Below are positions 1 to 42,616 of a DNA stretch of 64,000 nucleotides, in pieces. Made by a program: the position numbers and the translations under genes. How positions within the stretch are numbered: position 1 is the stretch's first letter; each line of letters opens with the position of its first letter. The notes under the pieces are model-generated. The model saw only the letters and a list, made by a program, of their open reading frames with translations. It searched no databases and was not told the origin of the DNA. This DNA is from an uncultured Candidatus Actinomarina sp. Lineage in GTDB: Bacteria > Actinomycetota > Acidimicrobiia > Actinomarinales > Actinomarinaceae. The stretch covers positions 1,259 through 65,258 of the forward strand of contig CABXDL010000004.1 in NCBI GenBank assembly GCA_902510995.1, given 5' to 3'.

Positions 1-42
1 TACAAAAAAATCTGTCAGTAGATAAAAGTAATATTAAAAAAA

Positions 43-2628
43 ATGTGGATAGTGAATAAAGAAAGAATAAAAACGCTTTTAAGCTATAGGGTTTCTTTTA
101 ATAATGCCTTCAAATCATTTGCCTTTCTATCAATGTTTTATTTGTTCTTAGTTTCTTTTACCTCTTCTCTTATTTACGAATATAAAGTAGAAAATGTTCA
201 ATTAAAAAATGAGCTTTCTACTACAGGTAAAGAGCTAGCTTCAACCAAAAATGCTCATGCAAATGATTTACTTTTATTGATGAACGCCTCTAAAAAAATT
301 GAAAAATTGGAGTACAACTGGAGCGACATGAATCCAGACTATAGTCCACAAGTTTCAATATCTCCATGTGTTGGAAGAGTTCCTCTAATGGAATCTGTTA
401 CCTATACCATAGGGTATAAATTTTTTGAAAAGCCACGTAAGTTTAAAATTGTCTTCACGGATTCAGTAAGTGATTTAGAGATTGATTTGCTTGAGCAAAT
501 TATATCAGAAAATCCAGATCCAATAATTGGCGTTAATGCTGAAATACCTACTTCTGGATACACAACCGTAAAAGCCTATGCAGAAGGTATGCCTGGTAAA
601 AATATGATGAAAGCAGAAATTTATGCTCAAGATATCAATGGAAACTTTATGCAACTTTCATGTGAGTATGACCTTCATACAACAAATACAAATGTTGAAG
701 GAGATTATGAAAGAGACCACATCAGAACAGCTCATGTACAAGATAATTACTACACAGAGACCCTTACCTTTGAAGGAAAAATCTGGGAACAAGAATGGGA
801 TTCTCCTACGGAATGCTCCGAAGATGAGTGGATTATTAAAGATGTTGAATATGATAATGAATATTTAGATGAGGGAGAAGATCCACAATCTCCACTGGGG
901 TATTGTTTAACTGATCTTAATGAAATACCATATCTCGCTGAAAGTCTTACGAGTACATTTCGTTACCCACAGATCAATGAAAATCCTTCTATCAATTCAC
1001 TCTATAGATTTGATGATGATATTGAAAAGATAACATGCGCAGAAGAAATAAACATGCAGTTAAAAGATTACGCAGTAGTATCGGTATCTACTTTTCAAAA
1101 GGATTTAGGTTGGGACTGGCATTGGGGAAGCTCACTTAGTGGGGACTATAGATTGGTTGGTCTTAATAACCAAAGAGATCGCAATCTAGATAAAGATGAA
1201 GATAAAGAGTACCCTCACACTTTCAGGTATGGACCATATGCAACAAGTCCTGCTCTATTTAGTTATGAAGATAAAAATTTTGATGGATTTAATGACCATG
1301 TAGGGCATTACAACAACCCTCCAGAATCAGATTTTTACCTATTTGAATATGGATTACTAGAAAATAAACCTTTAAATTATATTTCATTTATTTTTCAAAT
1401 ATATACCTTTACAGGTGGAAATCACGGTATGTATGCATATGAAACATTCAATTTTGATTTAAATACTTGTAAAAGAATATTCCTAAAAGACATAATGTCC
1501 GATAAATTACTAAAAGAACAGGGGTTTGAGTTGTCTCCTCAGTCCGATTCTTTATGGTTAGATCTATTAAGCTCTCGTCTTGGTGCTATATGGAATGCTG
1601 ATGAAGATCGAAGTACTGGATGGGAAGATCAACAAGTTGACTGGACAAAGGGAGATTGGGATAAAAGTGGAAACTGGAATGATGCAAATTGTTGCAGTTA
1701 TAGGAATATAGCTGCTGTCTCTATAAATGATGATGGGTTAACTTTTTCCTTCCAACCCTACGCTGTAAACGGATGGGCTGCTGGCTGGCCTGAGATAACA
1801 ATAAGTTGGTTGAATTTATGGGATATCTTTACCTGGGGAAACTGGAATATAGTAGAAAATACTGTTTATGAAGATACAGTAATTTTGCAAGAATTTGTTT
1901 CGTATTTAGACGAAGGAACGCCAATACCAGTTGAAGAGTTTGATCTACATGACAAAATCATTGGCGCTACTTATTTTTATACTGATTCATGGTGGAGTTC
2001 AACTTCTAAAGACCCAGACTATCTCCAAGTAGAAGTTGTAAAACAGAAAAAAGGAACTGTCTATGGCTTAGAGGGTAAGTTCACAGAAAAAGATACAGCA
2101 ATAGTTAAACGTTTTGTTAAATTTGCAAACAATATTATTGGAGAGAATTATTTTAGTTTTAGCGATAACCCAGACGAGGTAACACTCCCAGTAGAATTTG
2201 ATAATTGTTTAGGTAGGAGGCCTTTCGGTGGTTTCTGGAGCCACGCAACTGAATGCTCGAGTTATATTGGTCTATACAATTTTGATGAAAACAGCATCTG
2301 GGTAGAAAGTGATTTATATGGAAAAGAAAGAGATCACGTTTTAATTCATGAACTAGGTCACTCAATTGGATTAAACCATACTTCATGTTTTGCTTCTGGA
2401 ACCTTGAGTTTAAAAAGTAACACAGACGACATACTTGCTTTCTCAGAGTTTGAAATTGCAGTAATAGATTTTATCTATTCTCCTATTGAGTTAGTAGGCA
2501 CTATTGAGAACGGTATGACGTATGATGATGTAGTTTCTTTACTAGGTATAGATCCAAATCCTATAACTGTCGGTACGGAGTTTTGTCCAGATGAAATCCC
2601 AACATATATCCCAGAGGAGGAAGAATGA
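43..2628 (+). CDS. membrane-anchored multidomain protein: N-terminal TM helix, DUF3298/RsiV-PdaC-like domain, C-terminal metzincin-type zinc metalloprotease domain
   Basis: 861-aa ORF. Hydrophobic helix FAFLSMFYLFLVSFTSSLIY lies near the N-terminus. FTGGNHGMYAYETFNFDL..IFLKDI and FQPYAVNGWAAGWPEITISW resemble the DUF3298 signature. HELGHSIGLNH (nt 2347-2379) matches HExxHxxGxxH. Confidence 0.75.
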   Translation: MWIVNKERIKTLLSYRVSFNNAFKSFAFLSMFYLFLVSFTSSLIYEYKVENVQLKNELSTTGKELASTKNAHANDLLLLMNASKKIEKLEYNWSDMNPDYSPQVSISPCVGRVPLMESVTYTIGYKFFEKPRKFKIVFTDSVSDLEIDLLEQIISENPDPIIGVNAEIPTSGYTTVKAYAEGMPGKNMMKAEIYAQDINGNFMQLSCEYDLHTTNTNVEGDYERDHIRTAHVQDNYYTETLTFEGKIWEQEWDSPTECSEDEWIIKDVEYDNEYLDEGEDPQSPLGYCLTDLNEIPYLAESLTSTFRYPQINENPSINSLYRFDDDIEKITCAEEINMQLKDYAVVSVSTFQKDLGWDWHWGSSLSGDYRLVGLNNQRDRNLDKDEDKEYPHTFRYGPYATSPALFSYEDKNFDGFNDHVGHYNNPPESDFYLFEYGLLENKPLNYISFIFQIYTFTGGNHGMYAYETFNFDLNTCKRIFLKDIMSDKLLKEQGFELSPQSDSLWLDLLSSRLGAIWNADEDRSTGWEDQQVDWTKGDWDKSGNWNDANCCSYRNIAAVSINDDGLTFSFQPYAVNGWAAGWPEITISWLNLWDIFTWGNWNIVENTVYEDTVILQEFVSYLDEGTPIPVEEFDLHDKIIGATYFYTDSWWSSTSKDPDYLQVEVVKQKKGTVYGLEGKFTEKDTAIVKRFVKFANNIIGENYFSFSDNPDEVTLPVEFDNCLGRRPFGGFWSHATECSSYIGLYNFDENSIWVESDLYGKERDHVLIHELGHSIGLNHTSCFASGTLSLKSNTDDILAFSEFEIAVIDFIYSPIELVGTIENGMTYDDVVSLLGIDPNPITVGTEFCPDEIPTYIPEEEE

Positions 2629-3239
2629 AAAAATTTATTAAAAGTCACCAAGTTAAAATTATTAATGTTGCCTTTCTTATAGGAGGTATCTTCATAGGCA
2701 GTTTCGGATATGATGCCTACTGGGAATATAAGTTCACATCCTTAGAAAATGAAGAGTACACCTTTATAGATTCTGAAGAAAATGAATATATGTTAAGAAG
2801 GATAGAACCTTCAGATTGTGATTCTTCCAGTAATTTTATAGATCAAGCAAATAAGATTTATTCTTGCAACAACCTATTTGATACTTACTACTCCGAAGGT
2901 TGGAAAAGCGGTGGAAATGATTGCTCAAATGAGTCTATTACTTTCTACTTTGATAAAACTTACTACATAGAATTTATGACTGTCCAAAACTTCATCGATA
3001 CTTCTGAATTTAACAGTATGGATAAAATTAACGACTTTAGCCTCAGTTTTCCATATGGAGAAAATGAAAGTGTTCAAGAAACTCACTACCTTGTAAATGA
3101 TAATTTCGAACAATGGAAAGATATAAACAAAGTAGTAGATGAGATCACTTTTGAAATTATTTCATACTATGACACTCCTGGAACAAACATATGTGGATTG
3201 CAGGAGATAACATTTTTCGGAAAAGATGTAGATGAGTGA
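2625..3239 (+). CDS. membrane-anchored protein with tentative C-terminal discoidin/galactose-binding-like domain
   Basis: 204-aa ORF whose ATG overlaps the upstream stop (ATGA), with GAGGAGG 6-12 nt upstream. N-terminal TM helix VAFLIGGIFIGSFGY. The C-terminal pattern GW.SGG...ITFYFDK.YYIEF..VQN ... ICGLQEITFFG is reminiscent of F5/8 type C domains. Confidence 0.6.
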   Translation: MKKFIKSHQVKIINVAFLIGGIFIGSFGYDAYWEYKFTSLENEEYTFIDSEENEYMLRRIEPSDCDSSSNFIDQANKIYSCNNLFDTYYSEGWKSGGNDCSNESITFYFDKTYYIEFMTVQNFIDTSEFNSMDKINDFSLSFPYGENESVQETHYLVNDNFEQWKDINKVVDEITFEIISYYDTPGTNICGLQEITFFGKDVDE

Positions 3240-3393
3240 TTTAAACACAAAAAAATCTAAGATCTCTTAATATACTACCCTTTCTACTATTGAGCATTTT
3301 AGATTATTTCTGAATAATAAAGACCTTGTAAACGATAAAGAAGTCTGTTTTTTCTGTCTTAAGTCAATAAATGAAGTTAAAAGATTAAAAGGT

Positions 3394-3666
3394 TTGGATT
3401 TTGGATTTGTTGAATATTTTGATTATGACTTTAAATTTCTAGCCCAGCTTGCTGACAGTATGGGGCATGAGTACTCAGAAGATGATTTTATTCCTAGAAT
3501 TATCTTGTCTTGTGCTGAATGTAAAGAATTAATTAATGATCCAGATCGTCTTTTTTACTTAGATGAGGTAGAAAAAGAAGAAGAACAATCAAAGAGCAAC
3601 TGGGGTGTCTGGTTAGGTTTAATCTATTTGTTTTACTTTGCTCGAGCTATGGTGACCAGTCTTTAA
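3394..3666 (+). CDS. small hypothetical protein, Cys-pair (CAEC) plus C-terminal TM helix; true start may lie upstream
   Basis: 90-aa ORF from TTG. The frame is open back to 3271 and encodes a second CxxC (CFFC, nt 3346-3357). C-terminal hydrophobic tail WGVWLGLIYLFYFARAMV. A weak hairpin follows. Confidence 0.45.
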   Translation: MDFGFVEYFDYDFKFLAQLADSMGHEYSEDDFIPRIILSCAECKELINDPDRLFYLDEVEKEEEQSKSNWGVWLGLIYLFYFARAMVTSL

Positions 3667-3674
3667 AATGAAAA

Positions 3675-3700
3675 AACCCTGTAACCAAAAGGGCTTTTTC
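3675..3700 (+). terminator. weak candidate intrinsic terminator
   Basis: aaaaaCCCT gtaaccaaa AGGGcttttt: a 4-bp GC core, A/T extension and a short T-run just after the stop at 3666. Confidence 0.3.
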
Positions 3701-3835
3701 TAGTCTAAATTATGTAGCCAAAAAAGATAGTTGTATCTTTTAAAACTCAATCATCATAATTTGAAAATACTTTGTATGAATTATTGAGCTCAGGTTTACA
3801 TAAAAACAAATATGTAATGAAGGAGCTAATAATTT

Positions 3836-4060
3836 ATGTATGACGAATTGCTAAGTATAGAATTAAAAAAATCTCCAATGTGGGAAATCAATAATCCCAG
3901 AGTCAATATTTTAACAAGAGATTTACTAGCTTTTGTATTCGAGTCATCTAGCTTCAATAAAGAACAAATGGAGGAGGTTTTCTATATCTTATTATCTTTA
4001 ATAAGAATATATGGAGATCCAAGATTTGGTCATGAAAGAATGGAGGAGATAAATGAATGA
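3836..4060 (+). CDS. hypothetical small protein (74 aa)
   Basis: ATG preceded by AAGGAG 8 nt upstream. Its 3' end overlaps the next small ORF by 8 nt (ATGAATGA). I recognised no motif. Confidence 0.55.
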   Translation: MYDELLSIELKKSPMWEINNPRVNILTRDLLAFVFESSSFNKEQMEEVFYILLSLIRIYGDPRFGHERMEEINE

Positions 4061-4223
4061 ACTAGTAGAGGTTACGGAAGTAACTTTATTAAAAGAGTTA
4101 CTAACTAGAAAAACAGAGAATGGTCATTACTTATTTAAAGAAGCATCCATAACTAATAAAGATGGCAAGGTTCAGCTCTTAGGCATAATTGCTAATGTTG
4201 AGATGACGTTGTCTGTTAAATAA
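4053..4223 (+). CDS. hypothetical small protein (56 aa), not in the supplied ORF track
   Basis: Hand translation gives MNELVEVTEVTLLKELLTRKTENGHYLFKEASITNKDGKVQLLGIIANVEMTLSVK. GGAGGAG lies 4-10 nt upstream of the ATG. The stop TAA shares one base with the next ATG (TAATG). Confidence 0.45.
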   Translation: MNELVEVTEVTLLKELLTRKTENGHYLFKEASITNKDGKVQLLGIIANVEMTLSVK

Positions 4224-4567
4224 TGATTATTGTTCTAACAGTATTGTGTCTTTTTCTTATTTGGGCACTAACTAAGTCACATTTAAAAGTACACAGGCTT
4301 AATAAAACTCTAAAGATTTTCTGGAGTGATTTGAGGCACAAGAGAGTTGATTGGACTAGTACTATTTGCAACCAATGCAAACAACGCGATCTTAGTTACA
4401 ACGGCTTTGAAGAGTATCTAGAGGTTGAAGTTTGTTGGCGATGTAAAAAGAAAAAATCTTCTCACGATACAGGCAGATTTCCAACGTGTCTGGATTGTTT
4501 TGGATATCAGTATGGCCTTGAAGGTATTGAGTTCTTGGAAGAACAAGGGTTCAGTGTTATTGAGTGA
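4223..4567 (+). CDS. membrane-anchored zinc-ribbon-like protein (three CxxC pairs)
   Basis: 114 aa. N-terminal TM helix IIVLTVLCLFLIWAL, then CNQC, CWRC and CLDC pairs. Confidence 0.6.
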   Translation: MIIVLTVLCLFLIWALTKSHLKVHRLNKTLKIFWSDLRHKRVDWTSTICNQCKQRDLSYNGFEEYLEVEVCWRCKKKKSSHDTGRFPTCLDCFGYQYGLEGIEFLEEQGFSVIE

Positions 4568-4636
4568 TAATTGAAATAAATTAATGTATTGCTTGGAAAT
4601 ACCATTTCTTATGGAATTAAGCAGTATCTTTAAAGT

Positions 4637-6091
4637 ATGAATGGAAATAAAATACCAATCATATCAACTACTAAGCTTGAAAAAGTTAAAAATTGTAATG
4701 CCTCAAACGCTAAACCAGAGCCTCGAGTTAACTCAGGAACATTAACAAGGTGGGGTATTCTCAATGACGCAATAGGCGATTGGTTGAATAATGATGCCCC
4801 TGAAGAAACTGCAATAAAAAAAGCAGAGAGTGAACACTTTGGAAGCTTTGATGACCTTCAAAAGAGAATATTATCAGATATGTTTAGTGACTTCAGAGTT
4901 CTTTATCCCAAGAGGAAAGCAGAAATTGATATAGACTTTCCAAGCAAAACAGTATTTAAGGAGATTAACGGTGAAGAACATGGCATGTCTGCTTATTTTC
5001 AGTATCAAGTTAGTGATAAAAATACAATTGAAAATATAAAACTAAAAATTGGAAGGCCAGATATTAATGAAATTGATAGAGCAATCTATTCAGCTGATAA
5101 ATTAGAAAATGAAACCTTTTATGCAGGAGCAGTTGCTAATACAGAATTAATTGAGATTGAGGATATAGAAAATCATCAAACTATTATTGATGATTATTTT
5201 GATATCTATGAAGATTTTTTAGAGAATCCAAACAAAACAACTCCTGGGTCACACTGTTTAAGTAAATGTGGTCGACCTGCTGTATGTGGTGAGTTCCCTG
5301 TAATAGGAGATGAAAAAATCAACACACGCTATCGCGGGATAACTGTATCCAAAACTAACATCAGAGATGTCGAGAAGTGTGAAAGAAAAGCATCTTGGAA
5401 TTTCCAGTATTCAATACCAAGAGATAAAGAAGACTCTTTCAGTGGTGATTTTGGAATAACATTTCATAATGTCGCTCAAACAATGCTTGTGAATAATAAC
5501 AATCGAAATGATGAAGGTGAAAAAGAGCGATTGGCATCATTAATTGAGAATGAAGATGACGATACACAAAAAAAGATATTTAAAAAATACGAAGAATTAT
5601 TAGAAAAATTAAAAGGGTATGAGAATTTAGATATTACGTTATCTGAATATCCAGTAGGTTTTACGCCTATAACAGAAGGTCTAATTGCAAATAAAGACTT
5701 AACTGTTAAAGAAGGAAGGGTTGCAACCTCATTTATAGGTAAAGCAGATCTCCTAGGGCGCTTAGATGGTGTACCAATTGTTATTGAATTAAAAACCGGT
5801 AAAAAACACCCAGGAGATTTAACAGAGGCTGAGCTTTATGCTTTAGGTGTATCGAAACGCTTAAAAGCAAAAGAAGTTATTGTTTTACATATTTATGTAA
5901 ATGAAGATAAAGATGAAGCCAATGAACGTAGATTTGGAGAAGATGAGTTCATTTCTATAGAAAAGAAGTTTGAATCCTTTGCTGAAAAAATAGCTTCTTG
6001 GAATCCAAATGATGCTTTATCTCCAAGCTACGAAGTAGGAGATTGGTGTAATTATTGCGAATTTCAAGAAACATGTGCTGAATTTAGATAA
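4637..6091 (+). CDS. PD-(D/E)XK nuclease of the Cas4/AddB (RecB-like) type with Fe-S cysteine clusters; apparent tandem module
   Basis: 484 aa. GKAD371LLG and IVIE384LK386TGKK are typical D...ExK motifs. The C-terminal C471-x2-C474-x5-C480 plus C248 form the Cas4/AddB 4-Cys pattern. A second set is C20 plus C207-x3-C211-x5-C217. Confidence 0.8.
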   Translation: MNGNKIPIISTTKLEKVKNCNASNAKPEPRVNSGTLTRWGILNDAIGDWLNNDAPEETAIKKAESEHFGSFDDLQKRILSDMFSDFRVLYPKRKAEIDIDFPSKTVFKEINGEEHGMSAYFQYQVSDKNTIENIKLKIGRPDINEIDRAIYSADKLENETFYAGAVANTELIEIEDIENHQTIIDDYFDIYEDFLENPNKTTPGSHCLSKCGRPAVCGEFPVIGDEKINTRYRGITVSKTNIRDVEKCERKASWNFQYSIPRDKEDSFSGDFGITFHNVAQTMLVNNNNRNDEGEKERLASLIENEDDDTQKKIFKKYEELLEKLKGYENLDITLSEYPVGFTPITEGLIANKDLTVKEGRVATSFIGKADLLGRLDGVPIVIELKTGKKHPGDLTEAELYALGVSKRLKAKEVIVLHIYVNEDKDEANERRFGEDEFISIEKKFESFAEKIASWNPNDALSPSYEVGDWCNYCEFQETCAEFR

Positions 6092-6130
6092 GGTTATCTT
6101 TACAGTTTTTTTCTTAATATAATTATCTTG

Positions 6131-8380
6131 ATGGACTTATCAAGAACACCAATAGAGCTTGTTGAATCAGTATATAAATCATTAACTGAGAATATTGCAA
6201 CGCTAAGAGAGAGAAAAGGAACTCCCTTAACTCTTGCAGAAAAAATTTTGTTTGGCCATGCTAAAGATCCTTCATCAATTTCATTAGAGAAGGGTGAAGA
6301 TTATGGAGATTTTGCACCTGATAGAGTAGCGATGCAAGACGCAACAGCTCAGATGGCACTTTTACAATTCATGCAGGCTGGAATGGAAAAAACAGCTGTA
6401 CCATCAACTGTTCACTGTGATCACCTTATTCAAGCATATGAAGGTGCTACTAGTGATCTAGAGGTTGCAAATAAAACACATAAGGAAGTTTTTGATTTCT
6501 TACGTTCAGCATCACAAAAATATGGCATAGGTTTTTGGGGACCAGGAGCTGGAATCATACATCAAGTTGTTCTAGAACAGTATGCATTCCCAGGTGGAAT
6601 GATGATTGGTACTGATAGCCATACACCTAATGCTGGAGGTCTTGGAATGGTAGCCATTGGTGTTGGGGGAGCTGATGCAGTAGATGTTATGGCCGGAATG
6701 CCATTTAATACAAAAATTCCAAAATTAATTGGTGTAAAACTTACTGGATCCTTAAGTGGATGGACGTCTCCTAAAGATATAATTCTTAAAGTAGCTGAAA
6801 TTTTAACTGTTAAGGGTGGAACGAATGCAATAGTTGAATATTTCGGTGAAGGAACTACTTCAATTTCAACTACAGGTAAAGCAACTATTACTAATATGGG
6901 CGCAGAAATAGGAGCAACATGCTCAATTTTTCCATTTGATAGTAAAGGACAAGATTATTTAGTTTCAACTGGAAGGTCAGATATTGCAGAGCTTGCAGAA
7001 ACAAGAATGGATTTATTAACTGCAGACCAAGAAGTGTTAGATGAGCCAGAAAAGTATTTCGACCAGGTTATAGAGATAGATTTAGATACTTTAGAACCAC
7101 ATATTGTAGGTCCTCACACACCAGATTTAGCTAGATCAATTACAGATTTGAAAGAAGATGTTGAAGAAAATGAGTATCCAATAAAAATTTCAAGCGCACT
7201 AATTGGTTCATGTACAAACTCTTCTTATGAAGATATTGGTAGAGCAGCCTTTATCGCACGAGAAGCTGCAAAGCATGGTCTTAAAGCAAAAGTTCCATTG
7301 ATGGTCACTCCAGGTTCAGAACAAACAAGAGCAACTATTGAAAGAGATGGTTATTTGAAAGACCTAGAGGATATTGGGGCAACAGTATTAGCAAATGCCT
7401 GTGGTCCATGTATTGGTCAATGGAAAAGAGATGATATTAAAGAAGGAGAGAGTAACTCAATTGTTTCCTCATTTAATAGGAACTTTCCTGCACGTAATGA
7501 TGGGAATGCAGAGACGCTTTCCTTTATTGGGTCTCCAGAAACAGTCATAGGACTAGCACTAGGTGGAAGATTAGATTTTAACTTTTTAAGCGATACATTA
7601 ACTGATAAAAATGGAAATGAAATCTCATTAAGCCCACCGGTTGCTGATGAGTTACCTGATGCTGGATTTGAAACAACTCTTGAAGGATTTATTCAACCAG
7701 AAGAAGGTGAAGTAGAGGTAGTAATCGACCCTGAATCAAATAGATTACAAGCACTAGTTCCTTTCACTCCTTTTGAAAGTGATAATTACCATTCAATGAC
7801 AGTATTAATGAAAGCAAATGGGAAATGTACAACTGACCACATTTCTCCTGCAGGAAAATGGTTGCAGTACAGAGGTCATTTAGAAAATATTTCACAAAAC
7901 TTATTTATCGGTGTTAACAATGCATTTACTGAAAATGCCGGAGAAGGTATAAATCAATTAGATAATTCAGTTATGTCTTTACCAGACATTGCAAAATCAT
8001 ATCATGAAGAAGGACTCAACTGGATAGCAGTTGGAGATGAGAATTATGGCGAAGGGTCTTCAAGAGAACATGCAGCAATGGAGCCAAGATTTAGAGGGTG
8101 TAAGGTTGTTTTAGTAAAAAGCTTTGCACGAATTCATGAAGCAAATCTTAAAAAGCAAGGTATTCTTCCACTGACTTTTGAAAACAAAGAAGACTACGAC
8201 TTGATTGATCAAGAAGATAAAATAACAATTAAAAATTTAGAGGAAATTGCACCTGACGTACCAGTTGTTATATCAATAGAGAAAACTGGTGGAGAGACAA
8301 AAGATATAAAAGCTAATCACTCTCTTTCAGATGAACAAATAGAGTGGTTTAAAGCTGGTTCTGCCTTAAATTCTATATAA
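6131..8380 (+). CDS. acn: aconitate hydratase, short mitochondrial-type (~750 aa)
   Basis: [11 protein letters not shown]...[22 protein letters not shown]...[19 protein letters not shown] and [10 protein letters not shown]. The ORF track starts at TTG 6128; ATG 6131 is more likely. Confidence 0.95.
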
Positions 8381-15079: not shown

Positions 15080-15085
15080 ACTCAG

Positions 15086-15168
15086 TGCGGATGAGAGGAC
15101 TCGAACCTCCACGAGCAAAGCTCACTAGATCCTAAATCTAGCGCGTCTACCAGTTCCGCCACATCCGC
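15086..15168 (-). tRNA. tRNA-Leu (anticodon TAG)
   Basis: Hand-folded cloverleaf: acceptor GCGGATG/CATCCGC, anticodon stem CTAGA/TCTAG with loop TTTAGGA, long variable arm, T-loop TTCGAGT. No encoded CCA. Confidence 0.9.
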
Positions 15169-15180
15169 TAAAATGTCGCG

Positions 15181-15253
15181 TGGGTCGCCGGGGACTTGAA
15201 CCCCGAACCTGCGGATTAAGAGTCCGATGCTCTACCAGTTGAGCTAGCGACCC
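15181..15253 (-). tRNA. tRNA-Lys (anticodon CTT)
   Basis: Acceptor GGGTCGC/GCGACCC, anticodon loop CTCTTAA, T-arm CGGGG TTCAAGT CCCCG. There is one mismatch at the top of the anticodon stem. Confidence 0.85.
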
Positions 15254-15349
15254 TTTCATACAGAGTAACCTATGTAATATTAGTTAACTATAATTTTTTT
15301 GATTTATTGTTTCCATAAAACCAGTATCATGGAACAATAATTAGACGTG

Positions 15350-15424
15350 CGGGCTGTGGCTCAGCTTGGCTAGAGCGCCTGCTTTGGGAGCAGGAGGTCG
15401 TGAGTTCGAATCTCACCAGCCCGA
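15350..15424 (+). tRNA. tRNA-Pro (anticodon TGG)
   Basis: Acceptor CGGGCTG/CAGCCCG, anticodon stem CCTGC/GCAGG with loop TTTGGGA, T-loop TTCGAAT. Confidence 0.9.
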
Positions 15425-15429
15425 CGCAC

Positions 15430-15500
15430 GCGGGTGTAGCTTAGTGGTAAAGCTCCAGCCTTCCAAGCTGGCTACGAGGGTTCGATTCCCTTCACCCGCT
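15430..15500 (+). tRNA. tRNA-Gly (anticodon TCC)
   Basis: Acceptor GCGGGTG/CACCCGC, anticodon stem CCAGC/GCTGG with loop CTTCCAA, T-loop TTCGATT, discriminator T. Confidence 0.85.
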
Positions 15501-15504
15501 CAAG

Positions 15505-15578
15505 GCTCTCGTAGCTCAAACGGATAGAGCAACAGACTTCTAATCTGTAGGTTATAGGTTCGAGTCCTATCGAGAGCG
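15505..15578 (+). tRNA. tRNA-Arg (anticodon TCT)
   Basis: Acceptor GCTCTCG/CGAGAGC, anticodon stem ACAGA/TCTGT with loop CTTCTAA, T-loop TTCGAGT. Confidence 0.9.
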
Positions 15579-15585
15579 CAGACGT

Positions 15586-15661
15586 GGTGATCGTAGCTCA
15601 GTCTGGTTAGAGCGCCTGGTTGTGGTCCAGGAGGTCGCGGGTTCAAATCCCGTCGGTCACC
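15586..15661 (+). tRNA. tRNA-His (anticodon GTG) with genome-encoded G-1
   Basis: An extra 5' G pairs with discriminator C. Acceptor GTGATCG/CGGTCAC, anticodon stem CCTGG/CCAGG with loop TTGTGGT, T-loop TTCAAAT. Confidence 0.9.
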
Positions 15662-15679
15662 CAAAATTTAAGGAGAATA

Positions 15680-23083: not shown

Positions 23084-24127
23084 ATGGCAGGAATTAATCT
23101 TAGAAGAACTTTATTTGGCGGCAATGATATTGCAATTGATTTAGGCACAGCAAATACTTTAATTTATGTAAAAGGAGCTGGGGTTGTTGTTGACGAGCCA
23201 ACTCTTCTTGCAATCCAAAAAACTGATGGGTCTATATTCACTTATGGTGAAGAGGCAAAAAAATTAGTTGGAAGAGTTCCTGATTCAATTGAGTTAGTCA
23301 AACCATTAAGAGATGGTGTTATTTCAGAAATCGAATATGCAGAGGAGTTAGTAAAAACATTGTTGTCTAAAGCTATTGGAAGATCTTACTCTAGACCAAG
23401 AATAATTATTTGTGTACCCAATGGTGTCACTAGCGTCGAGCAGAGATCGATTGAGACCGCGGCACATGCTACAGGAGCTTCAGAAGTTTTTACTATTGAA
23501 GAACCAATGGCTGCTGCGATTGGTGCTAACTTACAAATTTTTGAACCATTTGGAAATATGGTAATTGATATTGGTGGAGGTACTACTGAAATTGCAGTTA
23601 TCTCTATGGGTGATGTTGTAAATGCTAACTCAGTAAGAGTTGGTGGAGAAGACATGACAGATAAACTAATTGAATGGCTGAGAAGTGAACATGCAATGTT
23701 AGTTGATGAAGGAATAGCAGAGTCATTAAAACATGCTGTAGGGTCTGCTTATCAATACGATAAGGAACCTCAAGTAACAGTTACAGGAAGAGATATTGTC
23801 AAGGGTGTGCCAAAGCAAGTGTTATTAGAAGCATCAGATGTTAGAAATGCTCTTGCCCCAGTAGTTAATGAAATTATTGAAGCCGTTAGAATTTCCTTAT
23901 CACAGACACCTCCGGCTTTAGTGTCTGATATTGATAAATATGGAGCATGGTTAACTGGGGGAGGTTCAATGTTAAAACAACTTGATAGAAAAATTGCAGA
24001 AGATTTAGGTATACCAATTAATATGACTGAAGATCCATTAAGTACAGTAGTTGTAGGCTCAGGGATATGTTTAGAGAGATTTGAAGACTATAAGACTGTA
24101 CTAAAATCTTCTGATAAACCAAATTAG
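23084..24127 (+). CDS. mreB: rod shape-determining protein MreB
   Basis: IAIDLGTANTLIYV, DIGGGTTEIAVIS and LTGGGSML. Confidence 0.95.
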   Translation: MAGINLRRTLFGGNDIAIDLGTANTLIYVKGAGVVVDEPTLLAIQKTDGSIFTYGEEAKKLVGRVPDSIELVKPLRDGVISEIEYAEELVKTLLSKAIGRSYSRPRIIICVPNGVTSVEQRSIETAAHATGASEVFTIEEPMAAAIGANLQIFEPFGNMVIDIGGGTTEIAVISMGDVVNANSVRVGGEDMTDKLIEWLRSEHAMLVDEGIAESLKHAVGSAYQYDKEPQVTVTGRDIVKGVPKQVLLEASDVRNALAPVVNEIIEAVRISLSQTPPALVSDIDKYGAWLTGGGSMLKQLDRKIAEDLGIPINMTEDPLSTVVVGSGICLERFEDYKTVLKSSDKPN

Positions 24128-24130
24128 TAA

Positions 24131-24925
24131 ATGTTCCAAGAACCTCAAAAAAGAAGAAATTATGTAATTTATATATTATTTATTTTCCTTTCGGGCTCCA
24201 TTTTTTTAGCAGATTTATTTTCAAATAAAAAATTCTCAGATCTTATTTCAGATAATGCAGATTTTTTATTCCCAGTTAGTCAGGAAGCTATTGATTTGTT
24301 TGACTCCTTAGATTTAAATATTATAAAAAATAAAAATACCTTAATCAATGAAAATATAAGATTAAAAAATGAGGTTATAGAACTTAGAAAACTTAAGTTA
24401 ATTAATGAGAGGTTAGTTGAAGAAATAAGGTCAAATAATGAATTAATTAAGAATGTCAACCTTGAAAATATTATTTATTACAAATCTACTATTTTAATTA
24501 AAAACACTGAAGATGAGTATCTTATTTCTGGTGGTAGAAATATTAACCTTAACAAAAATGATCTTATTTTAAATGAGGAAGGTTTTGTTGTTGCCTATAT
24601 AGTGAAGGTATTTGATGACCATTCTCTTATGAATACAATCATAAATAGTGAATTTTCTATTCCAGGAATTGACAAATATGGTAATCAATATTTGGTAACC
24701 TCAAACAGAGAAGAACTATTAATCAATTCAATTTATATTGAAGAAGAGAACTTAAATATTGATTATATTTTTACAGATGTAGCTTTTGATCATATAGGGC
24801 AATTTCCGATTGTTAAATTAACTAATGAAGAAGTGTCTAATGCTAATAATAAAATTTCAGCTGTTGTGCGTATAGATTATAAATTTAGTTTTGATTCGAA
24901 TATCTATATCGTAAAAGAAAAATGA
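24131..24925 (+). CDS. mreC: rod shape-determining protein MreC
   Basis: N-terminal TM helix, a coiled-coil region (LKNEVIELRKL) then a beta-rich domain. Positioned between mreB and mreD. Confidence 0.75.
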   Translation: MFQEPQKRRNYVIYILFIFLSGSIFLADLFSNKKFSDLISDNADFLFPVSQEAIDLFDSLDLNIIKNKNTLINENIRLKNEVIELRKLKLINERLVEEIRSNNELIKNVNLENIIYYKSTILIKNTEDEYLISGGRNINLNKNDLILNEEGFVVAYIVKVFDDHSLMNTIINSEFSIPGIDKYGNQYLVTSNREELLINSIYIEEENLNIDYIFTDVAFDHIGQFPIVKLTNEEVSNANNKISAVVRIDYKFSFDSNIYIVKEK

Positions 24926-25392
24926 AAATCTTAAGGAACATTAGTTATATATTTTTATTTGTAGCTCTGCTTGTTTTAGAATTGTTATTAGGCATTTTTT
25001 CTGAGTTTTCAGATTTAGAAATATTACCTTTTCTAATACTTTTATTTTATATTTCAATAAATAAATTTTCTAATGATTATATTCCTGCATTTTTCTTTTC
25101 TGGTATTTATTATGATCTTTTCTACACTTCTAATTACTTTGGATCTACAAGTGCTAAATTTCTTTCAATAGGAATTGTTATTAATTTTATTAATAAAAAA
25201 TTAGATGATAATTTGTTTAGTGAGTTTCTAGTTTTTTTACTTTCAGTATCCATATATAAATTTGAGTTTATTATTTTTTCATTTAGTTTTATTCAATTAA
25301 CAATTGTTTTTTTAATAAGTGTTATCAATTACTTTTTATTTAAGTTAATCAACATTACTCTTAAAAGGGATGTTTTTAAGAAATCGATATAA
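24922..25392 (+). CDS. mreD: rod shape-determining protein MreD (polytopic membrane protein)
   Basis: 156-aa, highly hydrophobic multi-TM ORF. ATGA overlap with mreC. The call is mainly positional. Confidence 0.65.
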   Translation: MKILRNISYIFLFVALLVLELLLGIFSEFSDLEILPFLILLFYISINKFSNDYIPAFFFSGIYYDLFYTSNYFGSTSAKFLSIGIVINFINKKLDDNLFSEFLVFLLSVSIYKFEFIIFSFSFIQLTIVFLISVINYFLFKLINITLKRDVFKKSI

Positions 25393-27208
25393 TTATTTAG
25401 CTTTATTATTTATTTCATATTTTTTATTTATTATTGTTAATTTTTTCTCATTACAGATATTAAATATAAATGATTCAATTGATAAAATAGATCAACAGAC
25501 GTATGATATATTTTACCTTTCAGCTCCAAGAGGTGAAATTTATGACACAAATAAAGAAAAACTAGTCACATCTTCACTTGAACCGCATTTATTTATTAAT
25601 TTGAGAAAAATTAATGCTGACAATATTGATCAATATAAACAATATTTAAAATATAATTTTGAAGAATTAAAAAATAGCGATTTTGAAGAAATTTTCAACA
25701 GTAGAGAGGCTTTATACCTAATAAGAAATATTAATGATTTAGATTATTTAGAAAGACAATCTTTATTAGAGTTAGAAGCTTTTGAAATATTTGATTATCC
25801 AATAAGACAATATAATTATGGGAACATTGCATCTCATATAATTGGTTACATTGGCAGGCCTACATTAGAAGAGTTTGAAGCATACCCTGATAGCAGAAGA
25901 AATGGGTTAGTTGGTAAGAGTGGTGTGGAGAAATATTACGAGGAAGAATTATCTGGAATAGCAGGCGAAATAGTATTTAAAGGCAATGAAATCATAGATT
26001 TTACAACACCACAACCAGGCGAAGATCTTTATTTGACAATAGATATTAGGACACAGCGCATAGCAACCGAGTCACTGTTAGAAGGTATAAAACTAGCAAA
26101 TGAAAATTTTGATTCTGAAAATATTATTCAAAAAGGTTCAATTGTTGTTATTGATATAAATTCTGGAGAAGTCATCTCTATGGTGTCTCTTCCAGATTTT
26201 GATCCGAATAAGTTCGTTAAAGGTATTTCTTCATTCGATTTTAATCAGTTAAATAGAATTGATGCATTTAATAATTTTGCAATACAAGGTTTATATCCAC
26301 CAGGATCTGTTTTTAAAATAGTAGCTTATTGGCTTGCAGAAAATGAAGGTTTATTTCCTGAAGGCATCAGTACAAGAAACAACAGGGTGAAGTGTGAAGG
26401 AAATTTATCGTTTAGTTTTACTGATGGATCACAACAAGTTTATAACGACTGGAAACAAGATGGTCATGGAAATGTTGATTTAAGTTCTGCTATACAGCAA
26501 TCTTGCAACGTTTATTTCTGGGATATAGCCTTAAAAATCTGGAGAACTTATGAAGGAAGCTCTAATGAATCAATATTACAAAAATATGCAAGAAATTTAG
26601 GGTTTGGAAAAATAACAGAAATTGACCTTCCTTATGAAAAAGCAGGTGTTGTCCCAGATAGGGAGCTTTTTGAACAATGGACAATAACCAAACCTGAATT
26701 AGTTAGACCAGAAGGCTGGCTTGGTGGAGACTTAATGAACTTGATTGTAGGTCAGGGGGCTATTACTACTACACCTATCCAAGTAGCAAATGCATATAAA
26801 ACTTTATTAACAGGATATTCTTCAGCTCCATATTTTGATAAAAATAAAGATGATATTGAAATAGTGAAAAATTATGATATTAATGATGAGTTTATAGAGT
26901 TTTTACTTAACGATTTAAATTTGGTTACAAATAAAAACGGTACAGCGTATTATGCATTTGAAGTATTAGGTAGCAAGGCCAATGATATAGGAGGTAAGAC
27001 TGGAACAGCACAAAATCCGGGTGATAAGAATAGTACCTCATGGTTTGCAGGTGTTGATTCAATATCTAATCCAAGGTATATTATTGTGACAGTTGTCGAT
27101 GAAGGTGGTTCAGGAAGTGCAGTAGCTGCACCAATATCAAGAAGGGTTATACAACATTTAATTGGAGTAGATTTAACTCCTGTAAAGTTTGGAGAAATAA
27201 CAGAATGA
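25370..27208 (+). CDS. mrdA: penicillin-binding protein 2 (elongation transpeptidase)
   Basis: SVFK (SxxK), SCN (SxN) and KTGTA motifs. N-terminal TM helix. Located between mreD and rodA. Confidence 0.9.
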   Translation: MFLRNRYNYLALLFISYFLFIIVNFFSLQILNINDSIDKIDQQTYDIFYLSAPRGEIYDTNKEKLVTSSLEPHLFINLRKINADNIDQYKQYLKYNFEELKNSDFEEIFNSREALYLIRNINDLDYLERQSLLELEAFEIFDYPIRQYNYGNIASHIIGYIGRPTLEEFEAYPDSRRNGLVGKSGVEKYYEEELSGIAGEIVFKGNEIIDFTTPQPGEDLYLTIDIRTQRIATESLLEGIKLANENFDSENIIQKGSIVVIDINSGEVISMVSLPDFDPNKFVKGISSFDFNQLNRIDAFNNFAIQGLYPPGSVFKIVAYWLAENEGLFPEGISTRNNRVKCEGNLSFSFTDGSQQVYNDWKQDGHGNVDLSSAIQQSCNVYFWDIALKIWRTYEGSSNESILQKYARNLGFGKITEIDLPYEKAGVVPDRELFEQWTITKPELVRPEGWLGGDLMNLIVGQGAITTTPIQVANAYKTLLTGYSSAPYFDKNKDDIEIVKNYDINDEFIEFLLNDLNLVTNKNGTAYYAFEVLGSKANDIGGKTGTAQNPGDKNSTSWFAGVDSISNPRYIIVTVVDEGGSGSAVAAPISRRVIQHLIGVDLTPVKFGEITE

Positions 27209-39908: not shown

Positions 39909-39981
39909 GGGGCTGTAGCTCAGTTGGTAGAGCACGTGCATGGCATGCACGGGGTCAGGGGTTCAAATCCCCTCAGCTCCA
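39909..39981 (+). tRNA. tRNA-Ala (anticodon GGC)
   Basis: Acceptor GGGGCTG/CAGCTCC with the G3-U70 Ala identity pair, anticodon stem CGTGC/GCACG with loop ATGGCAT, T-loop TTCAAAT. Confidence 0.9.
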
Positions 39982-39990
39982 CAGAAACTG

Positions 39991-41220
39991 GTGAAATTTT
40001 TGTATATTAAAGAAATATATTTACAAACTAAAGAACTAATAGGTTCACAATTTTTGATTGCAGTAATTTCTGTTCTTCAAGTGTCTTATGTCGTTAAACA
40101 GTTGGGTGTAGAAAATTTTGGAACTGTGACTTTAATTATTACACTGCCTAGTTTAATATTTAGAGCCACGCATTCTAGAAATAGTGATGTTACTTTACTC
40201 GCATTAAAAAAAGGTCAGAATATTTTTACTGATTCATTATTTTTTGATTTTTTTATAGGACTGTTCTCCTTTACTGTTTGTTTTTTAACTTTTTATAGTG
40301 AGCTTGGACATTATTTTGGAATACAAAAAATAACCCCTATTATTTTGTTTTATTTGTTTTCAAGAATTGTTCAAACTTTTTCTGAGACTTCAAAAGCAAT
40401 TTTAATATTTAATGGGAAAATGAAAAGTTTTTCATTTCTAGAATTTATTACAGTTCTAATAAGATTTTTATCTATATTATTTTTATTTCGAGTTGACCCA
40501 AGCATTGAGAATTATCTTATTTCCCAAACAATTTATTCTTCCACTTATGGTTTACTAGGTATTTATTTAGCTACTAAATATGCCAAAATCCAGTTAATAA
40601 ATTTTGAATCATTGTCTATATATTTTAAAAGAATTAAAAAATCTTATGGAAAACTTAGGTTTGATCAAATAGTAGGTTTAATTCCTCAGCATTTAGATGT
40701 TATTCTTTTAGGTGTTATTAGTGATATCTCATCTGTTGGGATTTATAAATTTGCTAAAAAATTGATAGAGCCAATAAATTATATAGTTGTTACATTCAAC
40801 CCATGGTTACAAAATAAGCTAAAAGATTCATCTTCAAGTTTTGAAATCAATGTTTTTTTCAAAAAAATATTACTTCCATTAAGTTGTTTAATCTCAATAA
40901 TGTATGTGGGATTTGGCAAAAAAATAATTTCAATTCTTGGTTCAGATGAATTTAGCGATTCATATATACCAATGTTAATTTTGTTAATAGGTTTTATATT
41001 CTATCTTTATACATTTTGGATTAGACAGTATTTATTATTTAACGATTTGATTACTTTCCATGCTTATGGAAGGTTAATTTATTCTGGTGTGTTTTTATTA
41101 TTAGCAATTCCATTAGCTCAAATTTATTCATCAAGGGGAATTGCCATCTCATTATCTTCTGCGATGGTCTTACAAAAGTCCTACGAATATCTCATATATA
41201 AGAAAAAATTAAAATCATAA
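39991..41220 (+). CDS. polysaccharide/oligosaccharide flippase-like polytopic membrane protein (Wzx/MOP-like)
   Basis: About 410 aa with at least 10 hydrophobic helices, in a glycan-gene context. The ORF-track start at 39940 lies inside tRNA-Ala. GTG 39991 is the first start after the tRNA; the exact start is uncertain. Confidence 0.6.
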   Translation: MKFLYIKEIYLQTKELIGSQFLIAVISVLQVSYVVKQLGVENFGTVTLIITLPSLIFRATHSRNSDVTLLALKKGQNIFTDSLFFDFFIGLFSFTVCFLTFYSELGHYFGIQKITPIILFYLFSRIVQTFSETSKAILIFNGKMKSFSFLEFITVLIRFLSILFLFRVDPSIENYLISQTIYSSTYGLLGIYLATKYAKIQLINFESLSIYFKRIKKSYGKLRFDQIVGLIPQHLDVILLGVISDISSVGIYKFAKKLIEPINYIVVTFNPWLQNKLKDSSSSFEINVFFKKILLPLSCLISIMYVGFGKKIISILGSDEFSDSYIPMLILLIGFIFYLYTFWIRQYLLFNDLITFHAYGRLIYSGVFLLLAIPLAQIYSSRGIAISLSSAMVLQKSYEYLIYKKKLKS

Positions 41221-41245
41221 ATTATTCACCATTATCATAAAGACT

Positions 41246-42616
41246 ATGAAATTAAATAAAGATACTAATTATTTAATAGTTATATTTATTTCAATTATAT
41301 TTATTTTTCTTGATGCATATGAAATATTTTCTATTCCAATTTCATGGATAGGGATGAGTTTATTACTAGCCTTGTCTTTAATTGAATACAAGAATCTTTT
41401 TACTAAAAATACAAAAGATATTTTATTATTTTTACTTTCTATTGTTTTAATTCCTCAAGTTTTTTATTTAGTATTTTTTGATTCAAGCATCTCTGACTTG
41501 GTTTATATTTTCTTAAGACTTTTTAATTTGGTATCATTTTTTACTGTACTTTTTTTCACTCTTTATTTTTTACAAAATAAAAAATTAGATTTATTTCTTA
41601 AATATACAAAATACTTAATTTATTTTTTTTCAATAACAACTATATACATATTCGTAGCTCAAATATTTGACCTGTATGAGCCTTTAAGGAATAGATCCAA
41701 TACAAATATATATGGTGAATCTATGCAGTCTATATTTTGGTTATCGGAACCTCATAGAGCTATGGGTACTTTTAGAGAACCCGTTTTTTTAGTTACTTTT
41801 TTCTTTCCTATTGTTCTTTTATATTTACATAAAACAAATAGAAAAAATTTTCTTATTCCTGTTGTTTCAGGTATAGCATTGGGTCTTACAAGAAGTAATT
41901 ATGTAAAATTATTTTGTATTATCTTTTTAGTTTTTTTATTAATTCAATATTTACTTAAAAGAGAAATAAAATTTGAGTTTATTATTTTTTTCGGTTTGAT
42001 TATTGTTTTCTCTACTTTTGGTGTATTTGAATGTAATTTGAACCCTGAAAGTATTGAGTGCTTGGAATATCAAGAGGATGTTGAGAATATGAATAGTTCT
42101 GGAGAAATAAAAATTGATTCAAATATTGACGAACCAGTTGTTGAACTAGGAAATGATAGAATCAACGTCATTAAATATTTTTTATCATCAATAAAATTTG
42201 TTAATCCTGAAAGCTTTAGCAATGTTAATTCAGATTTTCAGTCGTATTCCTCTCTAAAGGTTAATGAGGAGATGTATTTCTCTAACAGAACTTTACCCAA
42301 GTATTTACTTCAGAGATATAGTACTGAAAATTTTGGCACAGGAAATTACTCTCTAATTAAATACAAGATAAATGTACAAAACTTATTTGTATTTTACACA
42401 CAAGCTTTAGGAATTATTTTTCCTCTATTCTTATTTCTATCTATCTTTCATTTTCTTTATACAAAAAAAATTAATTTGAAGAGTATGTTTTTACTTCTTG
42501 TAATTTTATTTTTCTTCGTTAGTCCTATTGAAGAAGTTAATTCATACTACGGTTTAATTATTGGTATAACATATAATTTTCTTTTTAAAGATAGAATTAC
42601 ATATGAACAAATATAA
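41246..42616 (+). CDS. O-antigen ligase/polymerase-like (Wzy_C-type) polytopic membrane protein
   Basis: 456 aa, many TM helices, GLTRSNYVKLF (S/T-R-x motif typical of Wzy_C), and a roughly 110-aa hydrophilic loop. Confidence 0.55.
   Translation: MKLNKDTNYLIVIFISIIFIFLDAYEIFSIPISWIGMSLLLALSLIEYKNLFTKNTKDILLFLLSIVLIPQVFYLVFFDSSISDLVYIFLRLFNLVSFFTVLFFTLYFLQNKKLDLFLKYTKYLIYFFSITTIYIFVAQIFDLYEPLRNRSNTNIYGESMQSIFWLSEPHRAMGTFREPVFLVTFFFPIVLLYLHKTNRKNFLIPVVSGIALGLTRSNYVKLFCIIFLVFLLIQYLLKREIKFEFIIFFGLIIVFSTFGVFECNLNPESIECLEYQEDVENMNSSGEIKIDSNIDEPVVELGNDRINVIKYFLSSIKFVNPESFSNVNSDFQSYSSLKVNEEMYFSNRTLPKYLLQRYSTENFGTGNYSLIKYKINVQNLFVFYTQALGIIFPLFLFLSIFHFLYTKKINLKSMFLLLVILFFFVSPIEEVNSYYGLIIGITYNFLFKDRITYEQI

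Follow-up and report, generated by a model that had tools for sequence, protein, structure and literature searches.

Nucleases of the Cas4/RecB type that carry an iron staple hold a central place in CRISPR adaptation, in the resection of double-strand breaks and in the processing of Argonaute guides, and the role of their iron-sulfur (Fe-S) cluster is debated, the proposals being a structural staple, a DNA-end wedge or a sensor. In these enzymes one N-terminal and three C-terminal cysteines bind an Fe4S4 cluster, single-stranded DNA (ssDNA) threads a narrow channel to the D-DxK site of the Cas4 family, and for AdnA it has been suggested that the region around the cluster works as a wedge where the end is unwound (PMC12094033). 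A phylogenomic survey lists Cas4 fused to Cas1, to UvrD and to other helicases, type I-A systems that have cas4 as two separate genes, and a single viral derivative that has been inactivated, and describes no tandem Cas4 modules (PMC5704561). Here we report a gene from a stretch of 64,000 nucleotides of an uncultured Candidatus Actinomarina sp. (assembly GCA_902510995.1, contig CABXDL010000004.1, positions 1,259 to 65,258; hereafter the window), a member of the OCS155 cluster of the Acidimicrobiia. Its product is an internally duplicated, half-inactivated and presumably two-cluster nuclease of the Cas4 family, found here only in Acidimicrobiia and not described in the literature searched, which holds no tandem Cas4-like or two-cluster nuclease and, in the genome papers on the Actinomarinales, nothing on this gene.

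The 484 amino acids of the protein include eight cysteines in all (C20, C207, C211, C217, C248, C471, C474 and C480), and these fall into two sets, C20/C207/C211/C217 and C248/C471/C474/C480, each made of one distal residue and a C-terminal triad (Table 1). If eight cysteines are placed at random in 484 positions, two triads of the form C-x(2-4)-C-x5-C arise with a probability of about 5e-5 (300,000 trials). A preliminary description of the gene had pointed to these cysteines, to D371 and to the stretches IVIELKTGKK (from residue 381, with E384-L-K386) and ENIKLKIGRP (from residue 132), and the translation bears out all of them. The same description called the topologies of the two sets identical, which stands for the one-plus-three layout but not in the strict sense, since the first triad is CX3CX5C in this protein and begins CX2C or CX4C elsewhere, while the second is always CX2CX5C.

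Judged from its sequence, the C half is a bona fide, standard iron-staple PD-(D/E)XK nuclease of the Cas4/RecB type. Pfam places PDDEXK_1 (PF12705) on residues 237-480 with 51.6 bits against a cut-off of 22 (E 1.6e-13), covering positions 2-246 of the 247 in the profile, and sub-threshold matches were found to the cas4 model TIGR00372, to the Cas4 models of PADLOC and to the phage exonuclease family phrog_69. Compared by hhalign with the nuclease domains of AdnA-like and AdnB-like proteins that are encoded beside distant members of the family, the C half gives probabilities of 95-97%, and a Foldseek search with an AlphaFold model of the full-length protein finds Cas4, AdnA, ACE1 and AddAB by fold. 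The His/Asp/Glu-x-Lys site of the Cas4 family is present, with H277, which we take from the active site of Cas4 SSO0001 to be a metal ligand, followed by D371 and E384-x-K386, and with E397 and Y401 where RecB-family nucleases have their QxxxY motif. Conservation was assessed in a family alignment of 34 sequences that reaches down to about 20% identity, and the pattern seen there at H277, D371, E397, Y401 and positions 384 and 386 also holds in 51 loci collected from genomes.

The N half was not recognised by Pfam, which returned no match on residues 1-236 of the window protein; on 32 homologous N halves PDDEXK_1 was the sole family to recur, weakly and in five of them (best E 0.003). Its relation to the C half emerges when profiles built from the 34 diverse sequences are aligned with each other by hhalign, which gives a probability of 91.8% (E 7.3e-7) over 216 collinear columns. 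The alignment pairs S-x-T-x-L...C20 with S-K-T-N-I...C248, IKLKxG with IELKTG and triad with triad, and it also sets a (D/E)147-x-A segment of the N half against E397-A-x-L-Y of the C half. The homology becomes convincing only once the distant relatives from an exhaustive search are added: with 15 close homologues the same comparison is weak (E 0.029, probability 1.7%), and a direct BLASTP of one half against the other gives nothing significant (best E 0.24). An AlphaFold2 model of the N half alone (residues 1-226, alignment of 32 sequences) has a mean predicted local distance difference test score (pLDDT) of 90.7 and a predicted template modelling score (pTM) of 0.84, with a pLDDT of 94 around C20. 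In a Foldseek search of the PDB the top matches of this model are the ACE1 structures 9iac and 9iab (E 2.6e-8 to 1.5e-7, template modelling score (TM) 0.5-0.6), followed by AdnA (9np6 and 6ppr, query-normalised TM 0.57-0.61) and after it by Cas4 SSO0001, Dna2, AddA, RecB, RecE and MGME1 (E 2.6e-8 to 1e-3 across the top matches through RecB). The N-half profile is closer to its own C half (probability 92%) than to the neighbouring AdnA/B nuclease domains (31-35%), which speaks for a duplication within the gene rather than for the capture of a second one.

What the N half appears to have lost is the catalytic site: it reads as catalytically degenerate because its motif III is (K/R)-L-(K/R) and its motif II position is variable. 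The residue aligned with E384 is Lys or Arg in 33 of the 34 sequences, and the one aligned with D371 is Gln in the window protein and Glu, Thr, Ser, Ala or Val in relatives. All eight cysteines, in contrast, are invariant both in the alignment and in all 51 genome loci, one of which is cut by a contig end and is without its N half. Mean identity within the Actinomarina group is 46% for the N domain against 49% for the C domain, and between groups 20% against 26%; the N half is thus conserved almost as well as the C half, which indicates that it is under selection and not decaying. Some of its conserved residues have no counterpart in the C domain, namely L36, R38 and W39, which are invariant (window 4742-4753), D72, nearly invariant in a D-x-V-Q-R motif (4850-4852), and E132 (5030-5032), which is specific to the N domain and conserved in 28 of 34 sequences; these residues may mark a new function of the dead domain.

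Table 1. Features of the tandem nuclease gene and its downstream neighbour, in window coordinates
Feature	Coordinates	Strand	Description	Basis
Whole gene	4637..6091	+	484-aa (amino acid) tandem Cas4-like protein, ATG start, stop codon included	six-frame ORF (open reading frame) list and translation
N domain	4637..5311	+	residues 1-225, catalytically degenerate Cas4/RecB-like fold	hhalign, AlphaFold, Foldseek
C20, distal Cys of N-domain set	4694..4696	+	end of helix 11-19; invariant in 34/34 family sequences and in genome loci; pairs with C248 (hhalign)	
K135-L136-K137, vestigial motif III	5039..5047	+	aligned to E384-L-K386; 135 is K in 22, R in 11; 137 is K in 21, R in 12 (34 sequences)	
N-domain triad C207-x3-C211-x5-C217	5255..5287	+	three Cys invariant; first gap 2, 3 or 4 residues among relatives	
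Inter-domain linker	5288..5332	+	about residues 218-232; G218, P221 and, just beyond, R233 are invariant columns; low pLDDT in full-length model	
C domain	5333..6088	+	about residues 233-484, active-type Cas4/RecB-like PD-(D/E)XK nuclease	Pfam PDDEXK_1, profile matches
C248, distal Cys of C-domain set	5378..5380	+	within motif SKTN-x3-V-x2-C-E-R; invariant	
H277, predicted metal-ligand His	5465..5467	+	invariant in 34/34 and in all 52 aligned sequences	
D371, motif II catalytic Asp	5747..5749	+	invariant	
E384-L385-K386, motif III	5786..5794	+	384 is E in 28, D in 6; 386 is K in 25, R in 9 (34 sequences)	
E397-A-E-L-Y401, at place of RecB-family QxxxY motif	5825..5839	+	E397 invariant; Y401 in 33/34	
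C-domain triad C471-x2-C474-x5-C480	6047..6076	+	invariant, spacing constant throughout relatives	
Aconitase gene	6128..8380	+	36 bp (base pairs) downstream of nuclease; conserved neighbour in Actinomarinales, no functional partnership claimed	Pfam

The family so defined is narrow. Run exhaustively with HMMER against 1.84 billion cluster representatives, the N-half profile matched 74 clusters only, in which the full-length members are 465-512 amino acids long, the N domain is always N-terminal and the two-domain layout occurs in every one found; no ordinary single-domain Cas4 was matched in that search, and a 1190-amino-acid repeat protein among the hits (E 2.9e-4) looks spurious. Word-indexed homologue searches with N-half profiles gave close relatives and fragments only. 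A scan of one genome per species yielded the 51 loci, all of them in Acidimicrobiia or unclassified Actinomycetota: 45 belong to Actinomarina, Actinomarinales or unclassified Actinomycetota (43-98% identity) and six to high-GC (guanine-cytosine) Acidimicrobiia (26-28% identity over nearly the full length). A copy with 98% identity is found in the single-amplified genome AG-313-C18 and one with 90% identity in AG-333-G23. Because the single ORF is intact in the 50 complete loci, a gene-fusion or frameshift artefact can be ruled out. Where the source annotations name the protein at all, it is a 'PD-(D/E)XK nuclease family protein' or a 'hypothetical protein'. Two relatives, P0016 (785 amino acids) and P0039 (804), carry after the final cysteine triad an extension of about 300 residues that is of low complexity, coiled-coil-like and rich in Lys, Glu and Asn. 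In phage and plasmid collections no full-length relative was found, and the last 117 residues alone weakly match RecB-family exonucleases of Campylobacter phages; a mobile-element origin was considered and rejected on this absence of full-length relatives together with the fixed core-genome synteny described below.

These results carry most of the preliminary description with them. Its view of the C half as a Cas4/AddB-like nuclease agrees with the PDDEXK_1 match, the weak matches to Cas4 models and the fold of the full-length model, and its proposal of a second such module in the N half is upheld by the alignment of the halves and by the confident model; that the N half might prove not to have a restriction-endonuclease-like fold, or that homologues might not keep the first cysteine set, had been named as grounds for abandoning the idea, and we find instead that the best PDB matches of the N half are Fe4S4 nucleases of the Cas4 family and that homologues keep the set throughout. 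The suggested loss of the catalytic acid recurs across relatives, and the judgement that two modules in one small polypeptide are unusual fits an N-half profile that returns this family only, phage and plasmid collections empty of full-length relatives and a literature in which we encountered no such architecture.

Set against the described systems, both halves share the fold of the Cas4-family iron-staple nucleases (PF12705; Cas4 SSO0001, 4ic1; ACE1, 9iab and 9iac), and both have the single N-terminal cysteine and the C-terminal CX2-4CX5C triad of that family. The protein differs from the family in having two modules in one polypeptide, the first without catalytic acids and with an N half undetected by Pfam. 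It is not a CRISPR Cas4: the score against TIGR00372 is 26.4 bits where the equivalog cut-off is 65, only residues 353-480 match, and the flanking genes encode an M10-like secreted protein, aconitase, PNP oxidase, RNase PH and RdgB in place of a cas context. Neither is it ACE1, the nuclease associated with prokaryotic Argonautes, to which the similarity is at the level of the fold only, with no Argonaute in any context examined here. With AdnA/AdnB (6ppr, 9np6) and AddA/AddB (4ceh, 3u44), to which the N half compares at a query-normalised TM of about 0.6, it shares the principle of two RecB-type nuclease modules in one machine and of inactivated paralogous domains, examples of which are the dead helicase of AddB and the dead nuclease-like domain of RecC. 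Unlike AddAB, AdnAB and RecBCD, it has no superfamily 1 helicase/translocase domain (no helicase family matches within the 484 residues), and where AdnAB and AddAB carry their modules terminally on two subunits some 1000 residues long, here they are fused and one of them is dead. For want of the helicase domain the protein is not an enzyme of the AddAB or AdnAB type. The Wolbachia proteins CidB and CinB (7esy, 7esz) also have tandem restriction-endonuclease-like domains in one chain; Foldseek aligns the full model with them over 419-468 columns (E 3e-5 to 1.5e-3) but at a TM of 0.15-0.17 and with no sequence relationship. CidB and CinB are eukaryote-directed toxins whose domains are not known to carry an Fe-S cysteine staple. 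A case in which a Cas4-like fold has left catalysis for a DNA-binding or structural role is set by the TTV1 nucleocapsid protein as a precedent (PMC5704561); it is a separate viral protein, unlike the dead domain fused to a live paralogue found here.

Taken together, the explanation we consider probable is that of a stand-alone Cas4/RecB nuclease which arose by internal duplication, with an active-type C copy, a non-catalytic N copy, one predicted Fe-S cluster in each and a housekeeping role at DNA ends. An iron-staple nuclease module of about 230 residues would have been duplicated internally to give the two-domain protein. The C copy, with a metal-dependent PD-(D/E)XK site that appears complete (H277, D371, E384-x-K386, E397/Y401), is predicted to cleave ssDNA ends or flaps in a Mg- or Mn-dependent manner as they are threaded past the site, as in other enzymes of the Cas4 family. 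The N copy, having apparently lost the acidic catalytic residues and acquired a basic motif III while retaining the fold and the four predicted cluster ligands, would most likely serve as a non-catalytic DNA-binding or scaffolding partner, forming a built-in pseudo-dimer in which K135 and K137 line the vestigial cleft and bind DNA or position the substrate. In each half one predicted Fe-S cluster would sit between the N-terminal helix and the C-terminal cysteine triad. The gene looks vertically inherited and chromosomal in the Acidimicrobiia, and its retention in the core genome of Candidatus Actinomarina, about 1 Mb in size, points to a housekeeping function in DNA-end processing or repair rather than to defence, possibly exercised alongside a helicase.

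Several observations weigh against this explanation or parts of it. The full-length AlphaFold model is mediocre (pLDDT 68, pTM 0.56, every cysteine loop below 50), and no domain packing is drawn from it; even in the model of the N half alone, pLDDT falls to 74-86 over the triad. Searching the PDB by sequence, whether with the protein alone or with a profile of its N half or of its full length, gave chance matches only, with neither half significant. The metal bound could be [2Fe-2S] or Zn instead of [4Fe-4S]. No conserved operon partner defines a pathway, and the genomic contexts differ between clades. Finally, the Lys of motif III in the C half (window 5792-5794) is replaced by Arg (E-H-R-T) in nine of the 34 relatives, all of them high-GC (among them P0050, P0052, P0069, P0076, P0089 and L046), an unusual change in a PD-(D/E)XK active site; these relatives keep D371, E/D384, H277 and all the cysteines invariant, and the replacement puts in question whether cleavage is the conserved function everywhere.

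The surroundings of the gene in distant lineages raise a different possibility, that the protein serves an AdnAB-like or HrpA-like helicase machine as an accessory nuclease subunit, with the dead N domain as its docking module. The protein itself lacks a helicase domain, and in four high-GC loci (L047, L048, L050 and L051, about positions 1-5400) genes for an AdnA-like and an AdnB-like protein are present, the AdnB-like gene lying directly upstream of the tandem nuclease on the same strand; in a fifth (L049, 63-2540) an AdnB-like gene is again upstream on the same strand, with an MMPL-like transporter gene between it and the nuclease. Each of these helicase-nucleases has a C-terminal CX2CX5C triad. 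In another lineage (L053, 6242-9958) a gene for an HrpA-type DEAH helicase (1238 amino acids; HA2_C, OB_NTP_bind, DUF3418) ends 43 bp upstream of the relative P0052, on the same strand. The five adnAB-linked loci are, however, close kin (65-78% identity) and so count as about one observation, the type of helicase differs by lineage, and some other contexts are entirely without one. Neither an AdnA-like nor an AdnB-like gene occurs in the 64 kb window, nor, in Actinomarina loci, at 6 kb or less from the gene; seven large ORFs of the window beyond the locus were scanned, and no helicase, cas or Argonaute domain was found in them. We therefore regard a helicase subunit as unlikely, and a stand-alone enzyme as the better account. 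Of the remaining contexts, one has rph-rdgB 2.7 kb downstream of the nuclease, echoing the Actinomarina synteny, and two from further lineages are uninformative.

A more speculative extension of the stand-alone nuclease, to which we would give a small chance, makes the dead N domain, together with the Fe-S cluster predicted for it, a built-in wedge that binds ends or separates strands; the protein would then be a helicase-independent processor of broken ends replacing AdnAB or RecBCD in the streamlined, iron-limited Actinomarina, and the clusters might tie its activity to redox state or iron.

A role in anti-phage or anti-plasmid defence, as a solo-Cas4 or ACE1-like nuclease working with a neighbouring immune system, seems to us quite improbable. 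Solo-Cas4 proteins have been linked to defence (PMC12094033; PMC5704561), the C domain has its weak PADLOC Cas4 matches, ACE1 is the best fold match and a restriction-modification cassette lies upstream in the 98%-identical relative. The gene itself, however, has a fixed place in the core genome: in the Actinomarinales it always heads a block that continues with genes for aconitase, PNP oxidase, RNase PH, RdgB, a 226-amino-acid protein (seen at 29 loci) and citramalate/isopropylmalate synthase. Of the 45 Actinomarinales loci, 40-44 have the core of this block and 44 have the nuclease fixed upstream of aconitase, while the upstream side varies among these loci and its island is not co-conserved. 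No cas or Argonaute gene is found among the annotated neighbours, and an Rfam scan of the window at gathering thresholds gave transfer RNAs (tRNAs) only, with no CRISPR RNA family, although no dedicated repeat search was run. The lack of full-length relatives in the phage and plasmid collections and a family that tracks the phylogeny of the Acidimicrobiia down to 26-28% identity also speak against defence. Least probable of all is a two-site enzyme in which both halves are active and cut both strands in the manner of the AdnA + AdnB or AddA + AddB pairs, for even with a Cas4-like fold and cysteine set in each half, a Glu at the D371-aligned position in 14 of 34 sequences (many Actinomarina relatives) and the conserved E132, the motif III acid is replaced by Lys or Arg in all but one sequence, the motif II equivalent is Gln here and Thr, Ser, Ala or Val in high-GC relatives, the equivalent of the His is unconserved and E132, three residues before K135 on a beta strand, should therefore face away from the vestigial site, going by the strand assignment of the N-half model.

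Some further features of the window may be recorded. The island upstream of the nuclease (1-4600) encodes an 861-amino-acid M10-like secreted protein (DUF3298, matrixin-like HExxH), a 204-amino-acid NADase_transloc-like protein and orphan small ORFs; the same place in the 98%-identical relative (L001, 1-9900) is taken by an MvaI/BcnI-type restriction enzyme, a DNA methylase and an HNH protein. Just upstream of the gene (4223-4567, plus strand) is an orphan ORF of 114 amino acids with an N-terminal hydrophobic segment and, in the manner of a zinc ribbon, two CxxC pairs and a CxxC-like tail (CNQC...CWRC...CLDC); it has no Pfam match, and the 51 loci hold no homologue of it. A promoter and terminator scan around the gene was uninformative (12 sites against 12.2 expected, no terminators). 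Six tRNA genes (Leu, Lys, Pro, Gly, Arg, His) lie tightly clustered on both strands at 15085-15662, and tRNAs are hot spots that border flexible islands in the Actinomarinales (PMC7771536). The GC content dips to about 0.24 at 24000-26000 and 40000-42000 against a background of 0.30-0.33, and the GC skew flips around 36-40 kb, a part of the window with two minus-strand genes. The dip at 40 kb follows a tRNA-Ala gene (39909-39982) and includes a Polysacc_synt-like gene, and a Wzy_C-like gene is found at 59327; this fits the flexible cell-envelope island described for the order (PMC7771536).

About 80% of gene families are shared across the order Actinomarinales (PMC7771536). A copy of the iron-staple module that appears to be without catalysis keeps all four of its predicted cluster ligands under purifying selection across the class Acidimicrobiia, and it does so even in an oligotrophic lineage of the sea whose genome, about 1 Mb in size, sheds most dispensable genes. 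Such a copy would separate the cluster-bearing fold from nuclease chemistry within one small protein, which may make it a tractable system for the role of the cluster itself. For the annotation of Acidimicrobiia genomes the analysis defines an N-terminal domain family that had not been annotated, and it gives a bacterium abundant in the ocean one more candidate DNA-repair factor in its core genome.

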